In this document: piece by piece, positions 17,770-61,764 of the stretch
Numbering within the stretch: the stretch's first letter is position 1
How the letters are laid out: the number at the start of each line of letters is the position of its first letter
The notes under the pieces: generated by a model
Told to the model about the DNA's origin: nothing
Seen by the model: only the letters and a program-made list of their open reading frames with translations
Databases searched by the model: none
Origin: Candidatus Magasanikiibacteriota bacterium
GTDB taxonomy: Bacteria > Patescibacteriota > Patescibacteriia > Magasanikbacterales > UBA922
Length of the DNA: 64,000 bases
Assembly: GCA_018652595.1 (NCBI GenBank)
Contig: JABIBU010000016.1
Location: 26,911 to 90,910 of the forward strand
Reading direction: 5' to 3'
Program-made: the position numbers and the translations under genes

Positions 17770-17830
17770 CACCTCATCCTCCCATTTCAAAATTAAATGA
17801 TTAATTCTGAAATGGACGGAGGTGATTTTT
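17770..17830 (-). terminator. terminator of the zinc-ribbon gene (minus strand)
   Basis: cacctc-atcctcc-catttc … gaaatgg-acg-gaggtg hairpin, followed on the minus strand by a T-run. Contains an acctcatcct 10-mer shared with the double-hairpin repeats. Confidence 0.5.
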
Positions 17831-30856: not shown

Positions 30857-31309
30857 ACACTGATTACGTTGATTAATTTGGATTACACTGATTTTTATAA
30901 GTCTTGTAATTTCCAAAACGTTTTACTTCTAGACTGGGATTACCAAAATTTATAAGCAAACCAACTTCCAGACCACTAGCTTTTAAATAAGAAACTGTCT
31001 GGGTTTTAAATATTTTCGATACTTCCCCACTTACAGCTTTCAATTCAACAACAACCTTACTGTTTACCAACAAATCAACCCTAAAAACTCCTATTATTTT
31101 ATTGTTATATACTACATCAAACTTTTTTTCTGTTTCGACAGCATATTCTTGTTCAGTTAAATCATCTAACAATGCTGTATGATAAATTTGTTCCTTAAAA
31201 CCTGGGCCCAACCCCCTATGAATCTTCATTGCAATACCAATTATTTCACGTGTTAGTTTGCTCCCTTTTTACATATTCAGTGTAATCTATTATAATCTGT
31301 CAATCAGTG
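30857..31309 (-). mobile_element. inverted-repeat-flanked mini-cassette carrying the GxxExxY gene
   Basis: cactgatt-N16-attacactg (30857-30889) versus cagtgtaat-N14-caatcagtg (31278-31309). Terminal 8-9 nt are perfect reverse complements and the interior is AT-rich and similar. The right IR overlaps the stop of the PGI/PMI gene; the left IR encodes the last 7 codons. Confidence 0.5.
30873..31229 (-). CDS. GxxExxY family protein (PD-(D/E)xK-like), N-terminally short
   Basis: LGPGFKEQIYHTAL (GxxExxY), VDLLVN…VELKAV, LLINFG motifs. The conserved N-terminal segment (…TREIIGIA) is encoded in frame upstream of the ATG after a TAA, with no canonical start. Confidence 0.7.
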   Translation of the reverse strand: MKIHRGLGPGFKEQIYHTALLDDLTEQEYAVETEKKFDVVYNNKIIGVFRVDLLVNSKVVVELKAVSGEVSKIFKTQTVSYLKASGLEVGLLINFGNPSLEVKRFGNYKTYKNQCNPN

Positions 31310-35670: not shown

Positions 35671-36108
35671 ATCCTGAGCGTAGCGAAGGATCTCTCCTAC
35701 CTCAGATTTTATTTAATAATTAAAATAATGGTCTAATTTTTGACATTGTAACCACATTGTCGTATAAATCATTCCAATCTTTATTGTTCTTTTCAATAAG
35801 TTCTATTTTTCTTTTTCTAAGCCACCCCTTCAATTCTCTTTCTCTATTCATTGCTTCATGTTTAAAATGAAAATGTTCCCAATATATCAATCTATTAACT
35901 TTGTATTTCTTTGTGAAAGCATTATCAAATGTGCCTTTTTTATGTTGGTTAATTCTTTTTACTAGACAATTTGTAAAACCAATATAAATTACTTTGCTTA
36001 TGCTAGCAGTCACGTATACATAATAATTTTTCCTCCTAGGTATCATATTAAAATGTAAGTATTTATTCTTCGAAAGATCCTTCCTCGGTCTTGAGACCTC
36101 CTCAGGAT
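35671..36108 (-). mobile_element. inverted-repeat-flanked mini-cassette carrying the GIY-YIG nuclease gene
   Basis: atcctgagcgtagcgaaggatct (35671-35693) versus agatccttc-N17-ctcaggat (36075-36108). Termini agatccttc / ctcaggat are perfect reverse complements. The right IR overlaps the NUDIX stop codon. Confidence 0.5.
35720..36046 (-). CDS. GIY-YIG nuclease family protein (small, homing-endonuclease-like)
   Basis: YYVYV…IYIGFT…R…H…G…E GIY-YIG catalytic motifs in a protein of about 100 aa. Start taken at the internal M (MIPRRKNYYVY); the longer ORF overlaps the NUDIX gene. Confidence 0.7.
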   Translation of the reverse strand: MIPRRKNYYVYVTASISKVIYIGFTNCLVKRINQHKKGTFDNAFTKKYKVNRLIYWEHFHFKHEAMNRERELKGWLRKRKIELIEKNNKDWNDLYDNVVTMSKIRPLF

Positions 36109-39348: not shown

Positions 39349-39433
39349 AACACTTGACTTCTTTTATTTTTAATGGTAAAAATTAGTAAACAGCTCTTTG
39401 AACATTAACCTTTTTATAGAAGGAAAACATACG

Positions 39434-40168
39434 ATGGAAGAAACTAAGACCAATGACCCTCTCTCGTTTTTGATCAACACCTTCAACCTGATATATGGAG
39501 GACTCAGGTGGTTCTTTGCACCCGCAGTACCCTACCTATTCCCTCGTCGCAAGCTACCTCTCTGGATGACTCGCGGACGACATGTAGAGGTAATTACCGC
39601 AAACCAGATTACAGTGTTCAGAACCGCCATGGTAATCCCGATCTCTATGCTGGTCTACCATCACCACTACAAAACTGCATTTATTACCTTCGTTATTGCC
39701 GCTGTACTAGACTTTGTCGATGGCCTGGTCGCCACCGTACACCGACGACTTGGCTTCCAAGACAGCTCAGACCTGGGAAAATTCTTAGATGCATTCTGCG
39801 ACAAAATCTTCTACATCCTGACACTAAGCCTCGTTCTACTCTCTAGTAGATACGAAACAATGGGTCAATGGGCAATCGCCGCGCTGGTCATTGTCTCACT
39901 TCTAAGCATGGGCTGCGAAGTCTGGTTAGCGGTAGTCAGAGTCGAGGACTACTACTACAACAAGCTCAACGGCGCAAGCGGTGCCAGAGAGCTGAAAGCG
40001 AAAGGAGCTGGCAAGCTCAAGTTCGCACTCGAGATGGTTGGTGTCGGCGGCCTTTACCTATCGCTCCCCTCCTCCAATCATTGGAGCTTCTATGTGGGGT
40101 TTGCGTGCCTCATCTGCTCCTTCCCCTTCGCTGTGGCCAGCCTGAAGCAGAAACTTCAGCAACGCTAG
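39434..40168 (+). CDS. CDP-alcohol phosphatidyltransferase family protein (GC-rich, likely acquired)
   Basis: D-x2-DG-x2-AR…G-x3-D-x3-D motif (DFVDGLVATVHRRLGFQDSSDLGKFLDAFCD). About 50% GC versus about 35% background. RBS AGGAAA before M13. Confidence 0.7.
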   Translation: MEETKTNDPLSFLINTFNLIYGGLRWFFAPAVPYLFPRRKLPLWMTRGRHVEVITANQITVFRTAMVIPISMLVYHHHYKTAFITFVIAAVLDFVDGLVATVHRRLGFQDSSDLGKFLDAFCDKIFYILTLSLVLLSSRYETMGQWAIAALVIVSLLSMGCEVWLAVVRVEDYYYNKLNGASGARELKAKGAGKLKFALEMVGVGGLYLSLPSSNHWSFYVGFACLICSFPFAVASLKQKLQQR

Positions 40169-40294
40169 CCCACCCACCCTATAACCCCGCCTCGTTCACA
40201 GCCATCCTGGCTGAGTCTATCGAAGCGCGGGTTTTCCTTTTTCTAAGGATATTATTGCATTTTCTTAATATAAATTCAAGTTTGTTTATAAGTT

Positions 40295-40434
40295 CCCCTC
40301 TCCTTTATAAGGAGAGGGGCTAGGGGTGAGGTCTCACAGAAGCAACGTAATATCTTCACTGTAAAACCCTACTCCCACGCTCATTTTAACCTCATCCTGT
40401 CCTTCTCCTTGTTAAGGAGAAGGAACGTTCTAAG
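40295..40434. repeat. double-hairpin repeat element, copy A (module 1 40295-40333; module 2 40384-40434)
   Basis: Module 1: cccctctcc-tttataa-ggagagggg + ctaggggtgaggt. Module 2: ttttaacctcatcctgtccttctcc-ttgttaa-ggagaagg-aacgttctaag. Nearly identical copy at 52706-52814; half copy at 49118-49154. Confidence 0.7.
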
Positions 40435-40518
40435 ATTTTTATTAATAATTTGTTATGTAACAAAAAAACCACCATAAAGTGATTCAAAGCCTAATACCTA
40501 ACCCACCTAAACACCTAA

Positions 40519-46008: not shown

Positions 46009-46020
46009 ACAAAATAATTT

Positions 46021-46068
46021 AAGCCTTTCAAGCTTCTCAGGCTTCTCAGGCATTTTAAGCATTTTATT
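46021..46068 (+). repeat. AT-rich intergenic motif family (aagcctttcNagcttYtc…ggcattttaagc…ttatt) copy 1
   Basis: aagcctttcaagcttctcaggcttctcaggcattttaagcattttattt directly precedes the ybaB ATG. Related copies at 53230-53275 and 59693-59731. Confidence 0.55.
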
Positions 46069-46069
46069 T

Positions 46070-46366
46070 ATGTTCAACAAGCTAAAGCAGTTCAAAGACA
46101 TCCGCGACCAAGCCAAAGACATGCAAAACAAACTAGCAGAAGAAAGCGCCAATGCTGAAAGTGGTGGAGTATCTCTTACTATGGATGGTAATTTGAAACT
46201 TACAAAAGTAAATGTTAGCCCAGAATTACTCAACCCAGACAAAAAAGCCAAGTTAGAAAAAGCTTTTCGAGATGCTCACGATGACGTAAGTAAAAAAATC
46301 CAAAAAATAATGGCTACCAAAATGAGAGAAATGGGTGGCATGCCAAATATTCCTGGGCTAAGTTAA
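46070..46366 (+). CDS. ybaB: YbaB/EbfC family nucleoid-associated protein
   Basis: MFNKLKQFKDIRDQAKDMQNKLAEE… matches YbaB. The upstream part of the ORF (45893-46069) overlaps the dnaB end and is unlikely to be coding. Followed by recR. Confidence 0.8.
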   Translation: MFNKLKQFKDIRDQAKDMQNKLAEESANAESGGVSLTMDGNLKLTKVNVSPELLNPDKKAKLEKAFRDAHDDVSKKIQKIMATKMREMGGMPNIPGLS

Positions 46367-49001: not shown

Positions 49002-49117
49002 ATCTTAAAATTTCTAACTATCTAATTCACCTAATTTCTAATAAAATTCTAAATTCCAAATCTTGCTTCTTATATTTTACCTAAAATCTCAACATTTAAC
49101 AAGTTTACTTAGCACGT

Positions 49118-49154
49118 CCCCTCTCCTTTATAAGGAGAGGGACAGGGTGAGGTA
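49118..49154. repeat. double-hairpin repeat element, copy B (module 1 only)
   Basis: tcccctctcc-tttataa-ggagaggga-cagggtgaggt, in the divergent region between the MraY/WecA-like gene and the GC-rich secreted-protein gene. Confidence 0.65.
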
Positions 49155-49253
49155 TCGCAGTAACTTGACAAAGTGAGGAAAATGTTGTTAAATAAAGATA
49201 AAGTTTTGAGAAAACCGACCCGGCTTTGGGTCACAATCGCATGGAGGTTTATC

Positions 49254-49736
49254 ATGCGCGTTTCACCGCTTGGTGGAGAAAACACTCGGTTCATCTTTCA
49301 GATGACCTTCTGTCCCCCTCTTGTGCTTGTGCTTATCATGGTTCTTGGCTCAATCTCCTCTTGCCATGAAGCCCAAGCTGCCAACCCCGCCATCGACAAG
49401 TGCTGGAACGAAATGATGGAGGAGAAACGGATCAAGCGCGTGCTGGAGGACGCGCCCGTGGTTCAGCAGACCGCCATCGACTTCGTCCAAGCCTTCGATG
49501 ACCTGTCTGACCAGAAGACGGAACTCGAAGGGCAGATCGAACTTCTCCATATCCAGATCAGCCAGCTTGAGGAGGATAAGCTGCTAGCTGAGCTGGATGA
49601 GCTAATGGCGGATTCGCACATCGACAGCGAAATCTGCAACAACGATCAAGACGATGACGGTGACGGCTGGATCGACTGCCACGACTGGAACTGCGACAGG
49701 GACCCCGCCTGCAGTACTACCGGAATCAGCTTCTAG
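49254..49736 (+). CDS. secreted acidic coiled-coil protein (GC-rich, hypothetical)
   Basis: GGAGG RBS 7 nt before ATG. Hydrophobic signal-like segment LVLVLIMVLGSISSC, coiled coil, Asp/Cys-rich C-terminus (DQDDDGDGWIDCHDWNCDRDPAC). About 55% GC. Confidence 0.5.
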   Translation: MRVSPLGGENTRFIFQMTFCPPLVLVLIMVLGSISSCHEAQAANPAIDKCWNEMMEEKRIKRVLEDAPVVQQTAIDFVQAFDDLSDQKTELEGQIELLHIQISQLEEDKLLAELDELMADSHIDSEICNNDQDDDGDGWIDCHDWNCDRDPACSTTGISF

Positions 49737-49854
49737 TATCCACCTGCCCACTCTCAAAACCCACCAAGGAGACTCTCGGAGCGTTTCAGCTCCATCAAAT
49801 CCCCAGGACCGCGAACAACTCGCCCCTGGGGTTGTTCAATTATAAAACAAATAC

Positions 49855-49907
49855 TTGTCCCCTCCTTGTTGGGGGGGGACAAAAAAATAGCCTTTAGGCT
49901 ATTTTTT
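49855..49907. terminator. tandem hairpins, bidirectional terminator (secreted protein / clp convergent)
   Basis: gtcccctcc-ttgtt-ggggggggac-aaaaaaa, then tagcc-ttta-ggcta-tttttt. Confidence 0.65.
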
Positions 49908-52685: not shown

Positions 52686-52705
52686 AAATAGATCATTCCT
52701 TTATT

Positions 52706-52814
52706 CCCCTCTCCTTTACAAGGAGAGGGGTTAGGGGTGAGGTCAATCACTTTAGGTTTCTAGTTTTAACCTCATCCTGTCCTTCTCCTTGTTAAGGAGA
52801 AGGGACGTTCTAAG
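52706..52814. repeat. double-hairpin repeat element, copy C (module 1 52706-52744; module 2 52764-52814)
   Basis: cccctctcc-tttacaa-ggagagggg-ttaggggtgaggtc … ttttaacctcatcctgtccttctcc-ttgttaa-ggagaagg-gacgttctaag, located between the clp ATPase start and the upstream gene. Confidence 0.7.
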
Positions 52815-52824
52815 TTTTTTAATT

Positions 52825-53172
52825 TTAAACTAGTAGTAGCATATACACTACAAATATAGGCAAAGCCAAATAAACTAAAAATAAAAACAAGACTACAAAA
52901 GTCCATAACAATAAAAAAATGGAACGAAAAATCACGTTCCAAAATCTAACAAACACACTCATAAGAACCCCTTGAATATCACGCTGACCATACATGGGTA
53001 CAAAAATATTTTTCATCCAAAGAAATGGCACAAACTGAGCATTACCATCTTGGATCAAACGAAAACAAAACAAGGCCGCTCGCTTGGCTCCGCCGGTATA
53101 CCACCACAGCGGAAAATAAAGCAGATCAAGAAAAAATTCCAAAAACATTCGTTGTAATACGAGAATCCACAT
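52825..53172 (-). CDS. hypothetical small membrane protein
   Basis: Hydrophobic 116-aa ORF. The longer start (53232) would be encoded by the 53186-53240 inverted-repeat element, so the shorter start is preferred. Confidence 0.35.
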   Translation of the reverse strand: MWILVLQRMFLEFFLDLLYFPLWWYTGGAKRAALFCFRLIQDGNAQFVPFLWMKNIFVPMYGQRDIQGVLMSVFVRFWNVIFRSIFLLLWTFVVLFLFLVYLALPIFVVYMLLLV

Positions 53173-53185
53173 AGTTAAAATGCTT

Positions 53186-53275
53186 GAAAGGCTTGAAAAG
53201 CCCAAAAGGCTAGAAAGGCAAAAGTATTTCAAGCCTTTCCAGCTTTTCTGGCATTTTAAGCCTTTGTATTATATC
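53186..53275 (+). repeat. AT-rich intergenic motif family copy 2 with preceding 13-bp inverted repeat
   Basis: gaaaggcttgaaa (53188-53200) :: tttcaagcctttc (53227-53239), then caagcctttccagcttttctggcattttaagcctttgtattat. Confidence 0.55.
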
Positions 53276-53286
53276 ACAAAAATAAA

Positions 53287-59649: not shown

Positions 59650-59731
59650 GCTTTTTCTAAAAAGCCTTTTTAGCTCTACCTGTCGGTAGACAGGCTTTTC
59701 CAGCTTTTCAAGCCTTTTAGGCATTTATATT
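59650..59731 (+). repeat. AT-rich intergenic motif family copy 3
   Basis: Hairpin cctgtc-ggta-gacagg followed by ggcttttccagcttttcaagccttttaggcatttatattATG (start of the 59732 gene). Confidence 0.55.
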
Positions 59732-60406
59732 ATGCGTCGAAATATCGAACAAATAGAGATCAAGGAGCCACCTATTCAAGAACTGGGCAAAAAAAGATCT
59801 TGTCTAAAAAGAACTTGTTTTACTGGCTGTGGCTGCATAGTTATCTTTATTATTGCTTCTATTTTGTTATTAAAATTTGCTACTGGACCCAGAACAAAAA
59901 AATTGAATGAAGTTCCAGATAATTTTCCTGAATCAGTCCCGCTTTATGATTCAGACAATATTGAAGAAATAACCTTTACTTCCGGAAAAGAAAAAGGTCG
60001 TGCACTAGAGATTGTCGCCTTTGTTCCAAAATTAATCCTATCTCCTATTATTTTAGGGCTTGACAAGGAGGATAACTCTGGAACTGGTATCAGCATGAAT
60101 ATTAAAAAGACAGGCACTTGGAAAAACTTTGTAAACATAATGAAAGAACCTGTAGTCGATCACCGCGATACAATCCAAATAGAATGGACTGAGATGCCTG
60201 CCGAACCTTGGTTTGTGCAGAGCTACTATGAAACAGAATTAAAAAGTTTTGAGCACATCACAGAAAGAGATAATGAAAAAGATAATACCATTCGTAGGTT
60301 GAATTTTGAATTAGATGAAATAGAAGGTATACTATATATAGAAGACAATCCCACACAAGGTGGAACTGATTATGTATTGTTAACCGTAAAAACCCCTATA
60401 AAATAA
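59732..60406 (+). CDS. membrane-anchored hypothetical protein
   Basis: ORF with N-terminal TM. Start immediately follows an intergenic repeat motif. Confidence 0.4.
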   Translation: MRRNIEQIEIKEPPIQELGKKRSCLKRTCFTGCGCIVIFIIASILLLKFATGPRTKKLNEVPDNFPESVPLYDSDNIEEITFTSGKEKGRALEIVAFVPKLILSPIILGLDKEDNSGTGISMNIKKTGTWKNFVNIMKEPVVDHRDTIQIEWTEMPAEPWFVQSYYETELKSFEHITERDNEKDNTIRRLNFELDEIEGILYIEDNPTQGGTDYVLLTVKTPIK

Positions 60407-60423
60407 AGAATAATTTAAACCAT

Positions 60424-61344
60424 ATGTCTATCAAAGTCTTGAAACAAAAAGAACTAACCTGGGTCAACATCGACAAACTCGATAATGAGGCTTTGGCTTA
60501 TCTAAAAGAAAATTATAACTTCCACCACTTGGACTACGAAGATTTGCAAGGTGAGGTACAGACCCCAAAAATAGACGTATATAAAAATTATCTATTTCTG
60601 GTCTTTCATTTTCCTCATTGGAATTCTGTTTCACAAAAAGTAAAATCTCATGAAGTAGACGTATTCATGGGAGATGGATATCTAATCACAATCCAACACA
60701 CCAAGAGCAAAGAAATAAAAAACTTTTTTTATCGCTGTACAAAAAACAAAAAAGTAAAAGCTGACTGGATGCAAACAGGCCCAGGCCATCTATTATACAG
60801 ACTCACAGAGGCACTATTTAGAAATAGCCAGCCAATATTAGACACTATTGGAAAACAAATATCTGAGCTAGAAAATGAGATTTACTCTGGAGAACAAGAT
60901 ACTAAGACTGTAAAAGAACTTGCTATTCATCGTAGAAATATTTTGCAATTTAGAAGAATACTAGACCCACAACGATATCTAATTAGTAATCTTACTCATA
61001 TTCGCAAATCCTTTTTGGATGAAAGCTTGGCAATTTATTTTGATAATGTTAGCGATTATTTGAGCAAAATCTGGTCTATTACAGACACTTACCGAGATAC
61101 AATAGATGGATTACATGTAACAGTAGAATCTCTTATAAATCACAGGACAAACAAAGTAATTAGTGCTCTAACAGTTATTTCTGTCTCACTACTACCTCTT
61201 ACTTTGCTTTCTGGTATTTATGGCATGAACATCGCTGGTCTACCACATGCCCAAAATCCTTTTTGGGTCTGGATGATGTTTATAGGGATGCTATCTTTTA
61301 TACTAATAGTGATAGCTGTGATGAAGAAGAAGAAGTGGTTGTAA
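60424..61344 (+). CDS. corA: magnesium/cobalt transporter CorA
   Basis: C-terminal two TMs with the YGMNIAG (GMN) signature. Confidence 0.85.
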   Translation: MSIKVLKQKELTWVNIDKLDNEALAYLKENYNFHHLDYEDLQGEVQTPKIDVYKNYLFLVFHFPHWNSVSQKVKSHEVDVFMGDGYLITIQHTKSKEIKNFFYRCTKNKKVKADWMQTGPGHLLYRLTEALFRNSQPILDTIGKQISELENEIYSGEQDTKTVKELAIHRRNILQFRRILDPQRYLISNLTHIRKSFLDESLAIYFDNVSDYLSKIWSITDTYRDTIDGLHVTVESLINHRTNKVISALTVISVSLLPLTLLSGIYGMNIAGLPHAQNPFWVWMMFIGMLSFILIVIAVMKKKKWL

Positions 61345-61346
61345 TA

Positions 61347-61757
61347 AGTAGAAAGGTAAAAGTATAAAGTAGAAAGATTATGTCTTTAGAAAAATTTGAA
61401 GATATAATTGCCTGGCAAAAAGCTGGCAAACTTACTTTAAGTGTCTATAAAACCTTTAAATGTTGTAAGGACTATAATTTTAAAGATCAAATACAAAGAG
61501 CTACAGTATCAATAATGAATAATATTGCCGAAGGGTTTGAAAGGAAATCAAATAAAGAGTTTATAAGATTTTTGTACATTGCAAAAGGATCTTGCGGAGA
61601 AGTTCGATCAATGCTCTATTTGGCAATTAAATTAAATTATATAAAAGAAGAAGATTTTCAAGAGTTTTATAATAAATCAGTAGAAATTTCCAAGATACTT
61701 TCCGGATTAATTAAATCACTCAAATAACTTTCTACTTTTACCTTTATACTTTCTACT
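61347..61757 (+). mobile_element. inverted-repeat-flanked mini-cassette carrying the four-helix-bundle gene
   Basis: IR-L agtagaaaggtaaaagtataaagtagaaag (61347-61376) and IR-R ctttctacttttacctttatactttctact (61728-61757); terminal 9-mers perfect and duplicated. The cassette fills exactly the corA-murJ intergenic gap. Confidence 0.55.
61380..61727 (+). CDS. four-helix-bundle protein (23S rRNA intervening-sequence protein family, TIGR02436-like)
   Basis: AWQKA…VY…RATVSIMNNIAEGFERKS…EFIRFLYIAKGSCGE matches the family consensus. Flanked by 30-nt inverted repeats. Confidence 0.75.
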   Translation: MSLEKFEDIIAWQKAGKLTLSVYKTFKCCKDYNFKDQIQRATVSIMNNIAEGFERKSNKEFIRFLYIAKGSCGEVRSMLYLAIKLNYIKEEDFQEFYNKSVEISKILSGLIKSLK

Positions 61758-61764
61758 GATTTTC

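Follow-up and report, generated by a model that had tools for sequence, protein, structure and literature searches.

Dispersed repeats assigned to the BoxC/PIT/TM class in a candidate-phyla-radiation bacterium, and an association of such repeats with DUF559 nuclease genes

The stretch of DNA analysed here, referred to as the window, comprises 64,000 nucleotides of a contig (JABIBU010000016.1) from a Candidatus Magasanikiibacteriota bacterium and has a GC content of about 0.36. A single module of about 37 nt occurs in it five times, as two convergent pairs and one solo copy. In the module a 9-nt pyrimidine block is followed by a loop, a complementary purine block, a second loop of 1-3 nt and a mirror-image purine block, and all five copies show 9/9 allowed triads (G*G:C, A*A:T, T*A:T). 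The first loop measures 3 nt on an 11-bp stem, or 7 nt on a 9-bp stem if the TT/AA pairs are left outside the stem.

Pair A (40295-40434) lies between two convergent CDP-alcohol phosphatidyltransferase genes, with the G-rich tails of its two modules pointing inward across a 56-nt spacer. The left module, a G-variant on the plus strand (40295..40332), reads CCCCTCTCC / TTTATAA / GGAGAGGGG / CTA / GGGGTGAGG / T, also written CCCCTCTCC-TTTATAA-GGAGAGGGG-CTA-GGGGTGAGGT; it forms a perfect 11-bp hairpin, and its nine purine-motif triads lie between GGAGAGGGG and GGGGTGAGG. The spacer (40333..40388) is variable. The right module, an A-variant on the minus strand (40389..40424), reads TCCTTCTCC / TTAACAA / GGAGAAGGA / C / AGGATGAGG / T and is bordered by a conserved outer flank, CTTAGAACGT on the minus strand (40425..40434). 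The initial annotation, whose sequences are all present where it placed them, had described two hairpin modules here and had taken the second for a different kind of module. When reverse-complemented, this second unit is CTTAGAACGT-TCCTTCTCC-TTAACAA-GGAGAAGGA-C-AGGATGAGG-T and so repeats, on the opposite strand, the hairpin-plus-G-rich-tail unit of the first. A and B thus each consist of two copies of a single module in convergent, inverted order.

Pair B (52706-52814) is located in the clpC leader region, with a small ORF on one side and the clpC start on the other, and has the same inward orientation of the tails with a spacer of 25 nt. Its left module is a G-variant on the plus strand (52706..52743; CCCCTCTCC / TTTACAA / GGAGAGGGG / TTA / GGGGTGAGG / T), and its right module is an A-variant on the minus strand (52769..52804) that reaches 9/9 triads in the best register, followed by the conserved outer flank CTTAGAACGT, again on the minus strand (52805..52814). 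The B spacer (52744..52768) is unrelated to that of A except for its final TTTTA. Both pairs thus join two different variants, a G-variant and an A-variant. The recurrence of both units of A at B, which had been claimed, was borne out: the 38-nt left unit matches with 0 mismatches at 40295-40332 and 2 mismatches at 52706-52743, and with none of 100 dinucleotide-preserving shuffles, and the right units (40384-40448 and 52764-52828) are 92% identical over 65 nt.

The solo copy C with its outer flank (49108..49153, plus strand) lies in a divergent intergenic (promoter) region and reads CTTAGCACGT / CCCCTCTCC / TTTATAA / GGAGAGGG / ACA / GGGTGAGGT. It is the third copy, at 49116-49156, that had been described as a solo recurrence of the left module. 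One kind of arm bears the conserved outer flank CTTAGMACGT (M = A or C), which is found as CTTAGAACGT at A and again at copy B, at copy C (as CTTAGCACGT) and in L203, a relative with 88% identity. A hairpin on the minus strand at 49857..49880, GTCCCCCCCC-AACAA-GGAGGGGAC, has no third block and appears to be a remnant; judged by position and sequence similarity, it is probably the positional counterpart of variant modules that lie just after clpC in four relatives (L127, L129, L203 and L204). A search for GC-rich hairpins revealed no further copies in the window, and a fuzzy module search of the flanking source contig, about 80 kb in all, revealed none there. A 10-mer at 17771-17780, which had been counted with the element, is no member of the family: it is part of a hairpin that has a T run after it, with neither a pyrimidine-left/purine-right hairpin beside it nor a mirror purine block, and one exact 10-mer per 128 kb of two-strand sequence fits chance.

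Comparison with close relatives showed that the modules come and go at these sites. L203 has element A at the same site with identical stems and tails, but most of the spacer is changed, only about 12 nt beside the left module being conserved (tgcttctgYgag on the minus strand), and the loops differ (TTAACAA to TTGTA, and TTATAAA to TACGA). The site of element A is empty in L205, an 81% relative, and in L204, an 83% relative, both element A and the neighbouring gene are missing while a variant module is present at another place. Neither copy B nor copy C turned up in the relatives whose compared locus spans its site, copy C being absent at the homologous position in L127, L129, L203 and L204. 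Modules are therefore gained and lost on a short timescale among close Magasanikbacteria relatives, with stems and tails held constant. They lie in indel-prone spots, in agreement with a published link between such repeats and local variability. The elements do have a MITE-like look, as had been suggested, with inverted arms, a variable centre and presence or absence differing among relatives. Inverted arms are present at the pairs, and a related form that bears a gene encodes a nuclease rather than a known transposase (see below); no target-site duplication is visible at A or B, where the exact insertion boundary is not definable.

The region upstream of clpC (52686-52824, compared with L127:5890-6000, L129:5830-6000 and L130:3925-4060) is a hot spot in its own right. 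Three different kinds of sequence occupy it in four genomes: AT-rich TAAAGTC-type repeats in two relatives, a GC-rich palindrome (gtcatcccgagcgaagc...) in one, and pair B in the window. Just 3' of clpC (L204:443-700, L127:8764-8960, L129:8761-8960, L203:713-1000), relatives carry the variant modules mentioned above, in which a long second loop, sometimes a small hairpin, parts the third block from the hairpin.

We analysed the base relationships among the three blocks in copies collected by genome and viral scans. The pair and triad statistics were computed directly, with copies detected either by the tail alone or by the hairpin alone as a guard against circularity; in a gap-free MAFFT alignment of 110 modules the left arms were misplaced because loop lengths vary. 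In 187 distinct copies from many phyla, the bases of left arm, right arm and tail covary, with C/G/G in 171, T/A/A in 13 and mixed combinations in 3 (Fisher p = 4e-17), that is, C-G*G changes to T-A*A. This three-way covariation, the outcome of a check proposed with the initial annotation, is typical of a purine-motif DNA triplex. A 3' flank able to form 8/8 triads was present in 42% of 830 hairpins with a pyrimidine left arm, compared with 19% when flanks were swapped between hairpins and 0.6% when they were shuffled. Where the arm sequence is one of the rarer ones, the hairpin-anchored test gave 35% with own flanks and 2.4% with swapped flanks. Stem pairs switch only between C-G and T-A, flips to purine-left make up less than 3%, and right arms are 97% purine (300 copies). 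The likeness of the arms to Shine-Dalgarno and anti-Shine-Dalgarno sequences, to which attention had been drawn, probably follows simply from the purine and pyrimidine composition of the blocks.

Folding under Watson-Crick rules gave either three hairpins or one long imperfect hairpin (z -5.3 to -7.5); these calculations cover Watson-Crick and wobble pairs only, and no triplex. An alternative helix between left arm and tail was rejected, as the G-variant would carry two mismatches. Purine-motif triplexes are reported not to form in RNA (PMC4666352), which, together with the triad covariation, points to a constraint at the level of DNA. Judged from their sequence, the modules could fold, as single-stranded DNA, into a hairpin with the third block bound, an intrastrand purine-motif triplex. 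The element as first described, a dispersed repeat family with the potential for a three-helix fold, is in this respect upheld.

The three-block architecture and the three-way triad covariation identify the window modules as probable copies of a known class of intrastrand-triplex repeats, BoxC/PIT/TM, of which they would be a sequence variant. BoxC, PIT elements and TM_ECO are one and the same repeat, in which a pyrimidine block is followed by two purine blocks, the first of them complementary to it (Holder et al. 2015, PMC4666352); it was described by Bergler 1992 and by Hoyne and Maher 2000 and 2002, as cited in PMC4666352. A BoxC single strand forms an intrastrand purine-motif triplex in vitro, as seen by CD and NMR, and the triplex of the E. 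coli variant went undetected in double-stranded DNA and by in vivo footprinting (PMC4666352). The 23 copies in K-12 are all intergenic and without strand bias, their stems are more conserved than their loops, and they include five inverted pairs, each of two types (PMC4666352). According to the same work, the surroundings of BoxC are unusually variable, 3610 copies occur in 262 proteobacterial genomes, cyanobacteria are rich in related motifs, and no gene association and no phage or plasmid link is reported (PMC4666352). Earlier work, as cited there, found no promoter, terminator or other activity of PIT elements (PMC4666352).

The window modules share with this class the 9-nt pyrimidine block, the complementary and mirror purine blocks and the short loops. 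The purine side, GGAGAGGGG-YTA-GGGGTGAGG here, is nearly identical to the GGGGAGAGGG-TTA-GGGTGAGGGG found beside ycjD in E. coli. Like BoxC, the window modules are intergenic and without strand bias, have loops less conserved than stems, form inverted pairs of two variants and lie in variable regions. They differ in several respects. Their block register is off the strict TM_ECO consensus, having CCCCTCTCC and not CCCTCNCCC, so that CCCTCNCCC-N3-6-GGGNGAGGG-N3-GGGNGAGGG does not describe the window blocks CCCCTCTCC / GGAGAGGGG / GGGGTGAGG. Loop 1 is 7 nt here, or 3 nt with the TT/AA pairs counted in the stem, against published lengths of 3-6 nt for loop 1 and 3 nt for loop 2 (PMC4666352). The window arms bear the extra outer flank, and the host is a candidate-phyla-radiation (CPR) bacterium with 36% GC. 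Finally, we found modules on viral contigs and a strong association with DUF559 genes, neither of which is in the published work. What is new here is a member of the class in a CPR bacterium; the kind of element was already known.

The element is by no means confined to the window. The hairpin-plus-tail pattern occurred at at least 120 genome loci in contigs chosen as one genome per species, compared with about 5 matches expected by chance, as estimated from the database size. The phyla and lineages among the matches listed were Cyanobacteria, many CPR lineages, Melainabacteria, Bacteroidota, Alphaproteobacteria, Chloroflexota, Armatimonadota and Verrucomicrobiota. The same module with near-identical sequence ranges from 36%-GC CPR bacteria to 65%-GC alphaproteobacteria and phage contigs. 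The pattern was present in 68 viral contigs; in six related phage contigs (L132, L142, L143, L177, L180 and L198) the distance between a module and the major capsid gene is 15-34 nt, and L132, the one checked, has it 15 nt past the end of that gene. We found no report of the module in CPR bacteria or viral contigs in the searchable literature. Across 212 copies there was no orientation preference relative to genes, and there was a tendency toward gene 3' ends on either strand, modules often lying less than 50 nt from a stop codon. Short-spacer convergent pairs were common among random module loci, and cyanobacterial copies have a nested arrangement like that of the relatives' variant modules with the long second loop. 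It is conceivable that 37-mers shared across phyla could seed chimeric joins in metagenome assemblies.

The ORFs next to the modules pointed to one gene family. When neighbouring ORFs of the 120 genome loci listed were clustered by BLASTP, DUF559 (PF04480, a Vsr-like PD-(D/E)XK nuclease family) was the sole recurrent family, its ORFs adjoining modules at 5 of these loci; the neighbour clusters at viral loci merely reflect related phages. Among 80 metagenomic DUF559 loci, 50 had a module within 250 bp, but these 80 are relatives of three proteins first found beside modules (a three-sequence alignment served as query), so that the association may hold for one subfamily only. Module density was 1.99 per kb near the gene and 0.114 per kb farther away, a 17-fold enrichment. 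Thirty-three loci were flanked on both sides, with the tails inward in 21 and other orientations in 12; orientation was counted on tblastn match coordinates because the ORFs run into the downstream module. The resulting cassette of module, gene and inverted module measures 415-550 bp, and the stop codon often lies inside the downstream module. This arrangement is the layout of the gene-less pairs in the window, with a spacer in place of the gene.

The three DUF559 proteins that were profile-scanned each also match a restriction-endonuclease family, REase_MTES_1575. In the DUF559 alignments the D, E-x-D-G and H positions are invariant, and the closest solved structure is 3HRL, an uncharacterised 'endonuclease-like protein'. 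To our knowledge, a PD-(D/E)XK nuclease alone does not carry out transposition. A DUF559 protein of Caulobacter causes DNA damage in vivo (PMC12907096). No literature was found that links a DUF559, ycjD or COG2852 nuclease to repeats, and no report of an association between DUF559 and the module was found in the searchable literature. No DUF559 gene lies in 80 kb of the source contig around the window, and the window copies may therefore be orphans. On one metagenome contig (L243:1-2100), repeated back-to-back module pairs delimit three successive small ORFs, one a DUF559 gene and two unrelated, which hints that cargo other than DUF559 can sit between modules. Stand-alone small nuclease-type genes also occur in the window (35720-36046, minus strand; 30873-31229, minus strand) and at L202:2794-3060; two are GIY-YIG and one is PDDEXK_3, and none adjoins a triplex module.

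The same gene family appeared in E. coli. Among the best matches listed for the module consensus, 14 of 15 lie at the 3' end of ycjD, a DUF559 gene that takes its final codons from the module; two further modules follow in the direction of fabI, the place from which BoxC was originally described. The E. coli variant occurs in 5426/5426 genomes at a median of 19 places per genome, and it gave 34-366 plasmid matches depending on the threshold; ycjD is present in 3378/5426 genomes. In a spread sample the number of BoxC-type modules per genome was bimodal, 43 genomes having 10-26 and 17 having 1-4. Three of the low-count strains, Nissle, NCTC9022 and SaT040, belong to phylogroup B2. In published work, phylogroups other than A, B1 and C have eefRABCD at the site of ycjD; even so, 12 module copies are present in O157 strains. 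The relation between the presence of ycjD and the number of modules in E. coli is suggestive only, as phylogeny confounds it.

Taken together, we consider that these data are best explained jointly if the modules are DNA-level repeats of the BoxC/PIT/TM class and the gene-less pairs are non-autonomous relatives of DUF559 cassettes, a reading to which we give a probability of about 0.7. Most likely the modules are selfish or structural DNA-level repeats rather than genes. We infer that the gene-less pairs are MITE/REPIN-like, non-autonomous relatives of the cassettes because they have the same layout of module, spacer and inverted module as the 415-550-bp cassettes. In a possible mechanism, the modules would fold, as the triads suggest, when replication, transcription or DNA uptake leaves the DNA single-stranded; such single-strand folding has been shown in vitro for the E. 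coli variant only (PMC4666352). The folded structure might then be nicked or cut, or replication might stall there, and repair or template switching could copy, convert or delete modules and nearby DNA. A DUF559 nuclease would be the protein that recognises the modules. We tentatively propose, with the odds somewhat against it, that the DUF559 proteins, E. coli YcjD and its relatives, are the missing partner enzymes of BoxC/PIT/TM repeats, the nuclease recognising the folded motifs and driving their copying, conversion or loss. If so, this would be a REP/RAYT-like system with a different enzyme and a three-stranded DNA structure, spread over many bacterial phyla and some phages. The pairs in the window would be its gene-less offspring, which would explain why the repeats mark unstable regions.

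Other explanations account for parts of these observations. The gene-less pairs might be empty homing sites, with the DUF559 gene acting as a free-standing homing endonuclease gene that cuts the centre of a pair and is copied in by repair, the pairs having spread in some other way. Homing predicts the identical layout of module, gene and inverted module; Vsr-like folds are found in the known homing endonuclease family I-Bth0305I (PMC3239194); and some pair spacers are too short to be what is left of a gene, one in E. coli KE51 measuring 5 nt. This explanation is nevertheless unlikely, since it does not account for the spread of pairs and solo modules, the gene at Bosea-type loci lies between two complete pairs and not inside one, and 12/33 double-flanked loci have other orientations. 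Mobilisation as REP/REPIN-type elements by a RAYT (Y1, IS200-like) transposase would suit short intergenic palindromes that occur as inverted doublets and singlets, lie nearer to the 3' than to the 5' ends of genes in both orientations, and outnumber the flanked gene as repeats do in the REP/RAYT situation. We hold it to be very improbable, as a search with E. coli RayT detected no homologue in the 2.09 Mb surrounding modules and DUF559 genes (12,252 ORFs), the Y1_Tnp family is absent from the gene lists for 80 kb of the source contig, and the gene flanked by modules is DUF559 instead of RAYT. Nor is there a GTAG or CGTC tag; the palindromes are flanked by ATT/GTT on one side and by the G-rich third block on the other. 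It had also been suggested that the copies are boundary elements of transferred cassettes, which in integron-attC-like form would make them recombination sites around horizontally acquired GC-rich genes. Two stretches of the window (39398-40250 and 49173-49850) do have a GC content of 0.50-0.58 compared with about 0.36 elsewhere, A and C adjoin them, and relatives have variant modules at one end of the second island. The claim that copies sit beside GC-rich genes holds, however, for A and C but not for B, which has no island. Homologues of the GC-rich CDP-alcohol transferase of island 1 occur only in Magasanikbacteria-labelled or unlabelled assemblies (42-89% identity), and island 2, at 49 kb, is diverged but present in four relatives and absent in one. 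The phyletic patterns of islands and modules differ, L205 having island 1 without element A and L127, L129, L203 and L204 having island 2 without module C, and no integrase is present in the 80-kb gene lists. These distributions give no support to cassette borders, which we regard as scarcely probable at all, or to a foreign origin of the GC-rich genes, for which no foreign homologue was found and which appear lineage-specific rather than acquired, as had been thought.

Two further explanations place the function of the modules in the transcript. A family of structured small RNAs or cis-regulatory RNAs with a three-helix fold, one of the possibilities raised by the initial annotation, would agree with RNA folding of both strands of A and B far better than shuffles (z -5.9 to -7.5), with the use of G.U pairs by the long hairpin of the plus strand, and with the position of B in the clpC leader. 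Yet Rfam 15 had no match in the window at gathering or relaxed thresholds, the best relaxed match scoring 20 bits against a cut-off of 50, and no matches on the modules in 18 other loci. Relative to flanking genes the copies lie in both orientations, the intergenic regions concerned being convergent, tandem or divergent, and no promoter-like site was found for copy B. Stems that never flip to purine-left and a third block that covaries are not required by a plain RNA helix, and they belong to a triplex type that is reported absent in RNA; an RNA family is very unlikely on these grounds. Host-serving hairpins at gene ends, acting as terminators, attenuators or stabilisers of mRNA 3' ends, would fit the short distances to stop codons and to the phage major capsid gene and the position of copy A between convergent genes. 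No window module, however, has a hairpin-plus-T-run (terminator-like) site, copies C and B are placed in a divergent promoter region and upstream of clpC, respectively, earlier studies cited by PMC4666352 saw neither terminator nor promoter activity with PIT elements, and the conserved third block would be left unexplained. We therefore think this explanation improbable and keep to the reading of the modules as BoxC/PIT/TM-class DNA repeats related to DUF559 cassettes.

The modules resemble other repeat systems in part. Like REP, BIME and REPIN elements they are short intergenic palindromic repeats that occur as singlets and inverted doublets, and as in REP/RAYT systems the flanked enzyme gene appears to be far rarer than dispersed gene-less copies. 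The flanked gene is, however, a Vsr-like PD-(D/E)XK nuclease and not an HUH/Y1 transposase, and the modules lack the GTAG tag of REPs but have a third, mirror block. REPs are usually species-specific, whereas the module sequence is kept across phyla. Fungal mitochondrial GC-rich palindromic clusters and double-hairpin elements are likewise pairs of hairpins scattered in AT-rich DNA, and are suspected to be mobile and linked to endonuclease genes. We know of no triplex-type third block described for them; with other hosts and other sequences, they are like the modules by analogy only.

Since 1992 the BoxC repeat of E. coli has remained an orphan, with no function, spreading mechanism or associated gene reported. 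As a known repeat in a new host, the window element is of modest interest. The link to DUF559 is a lead worth pursuing, since K-12 carries ycjD and the link is directly testable in E. coli, and it offers a candidate cause for the instability reported around BoxC repeats.

Two other arrangements of repeats were observed in the window. A gene for a 115-aa four-helix-bundle protein (PF05635, the 23S rRNA intervening-sequence protein family; 61380-61727, plus strand) lies at 61341-61761 and is exactly bracketed by an inverted repeat of 30-34 nt (61341-61376 and 61727-61761), so that it resembles a small cassette. Arrays of a motif with a 9-nt period (AAGCYTTTC / AGGCTTCTC) occur at 46012-46080, 53170-53281 and 59683-59742, mostly in intergenic DNA and in both direct and inverted order, and may be operator arrays for one regulator.
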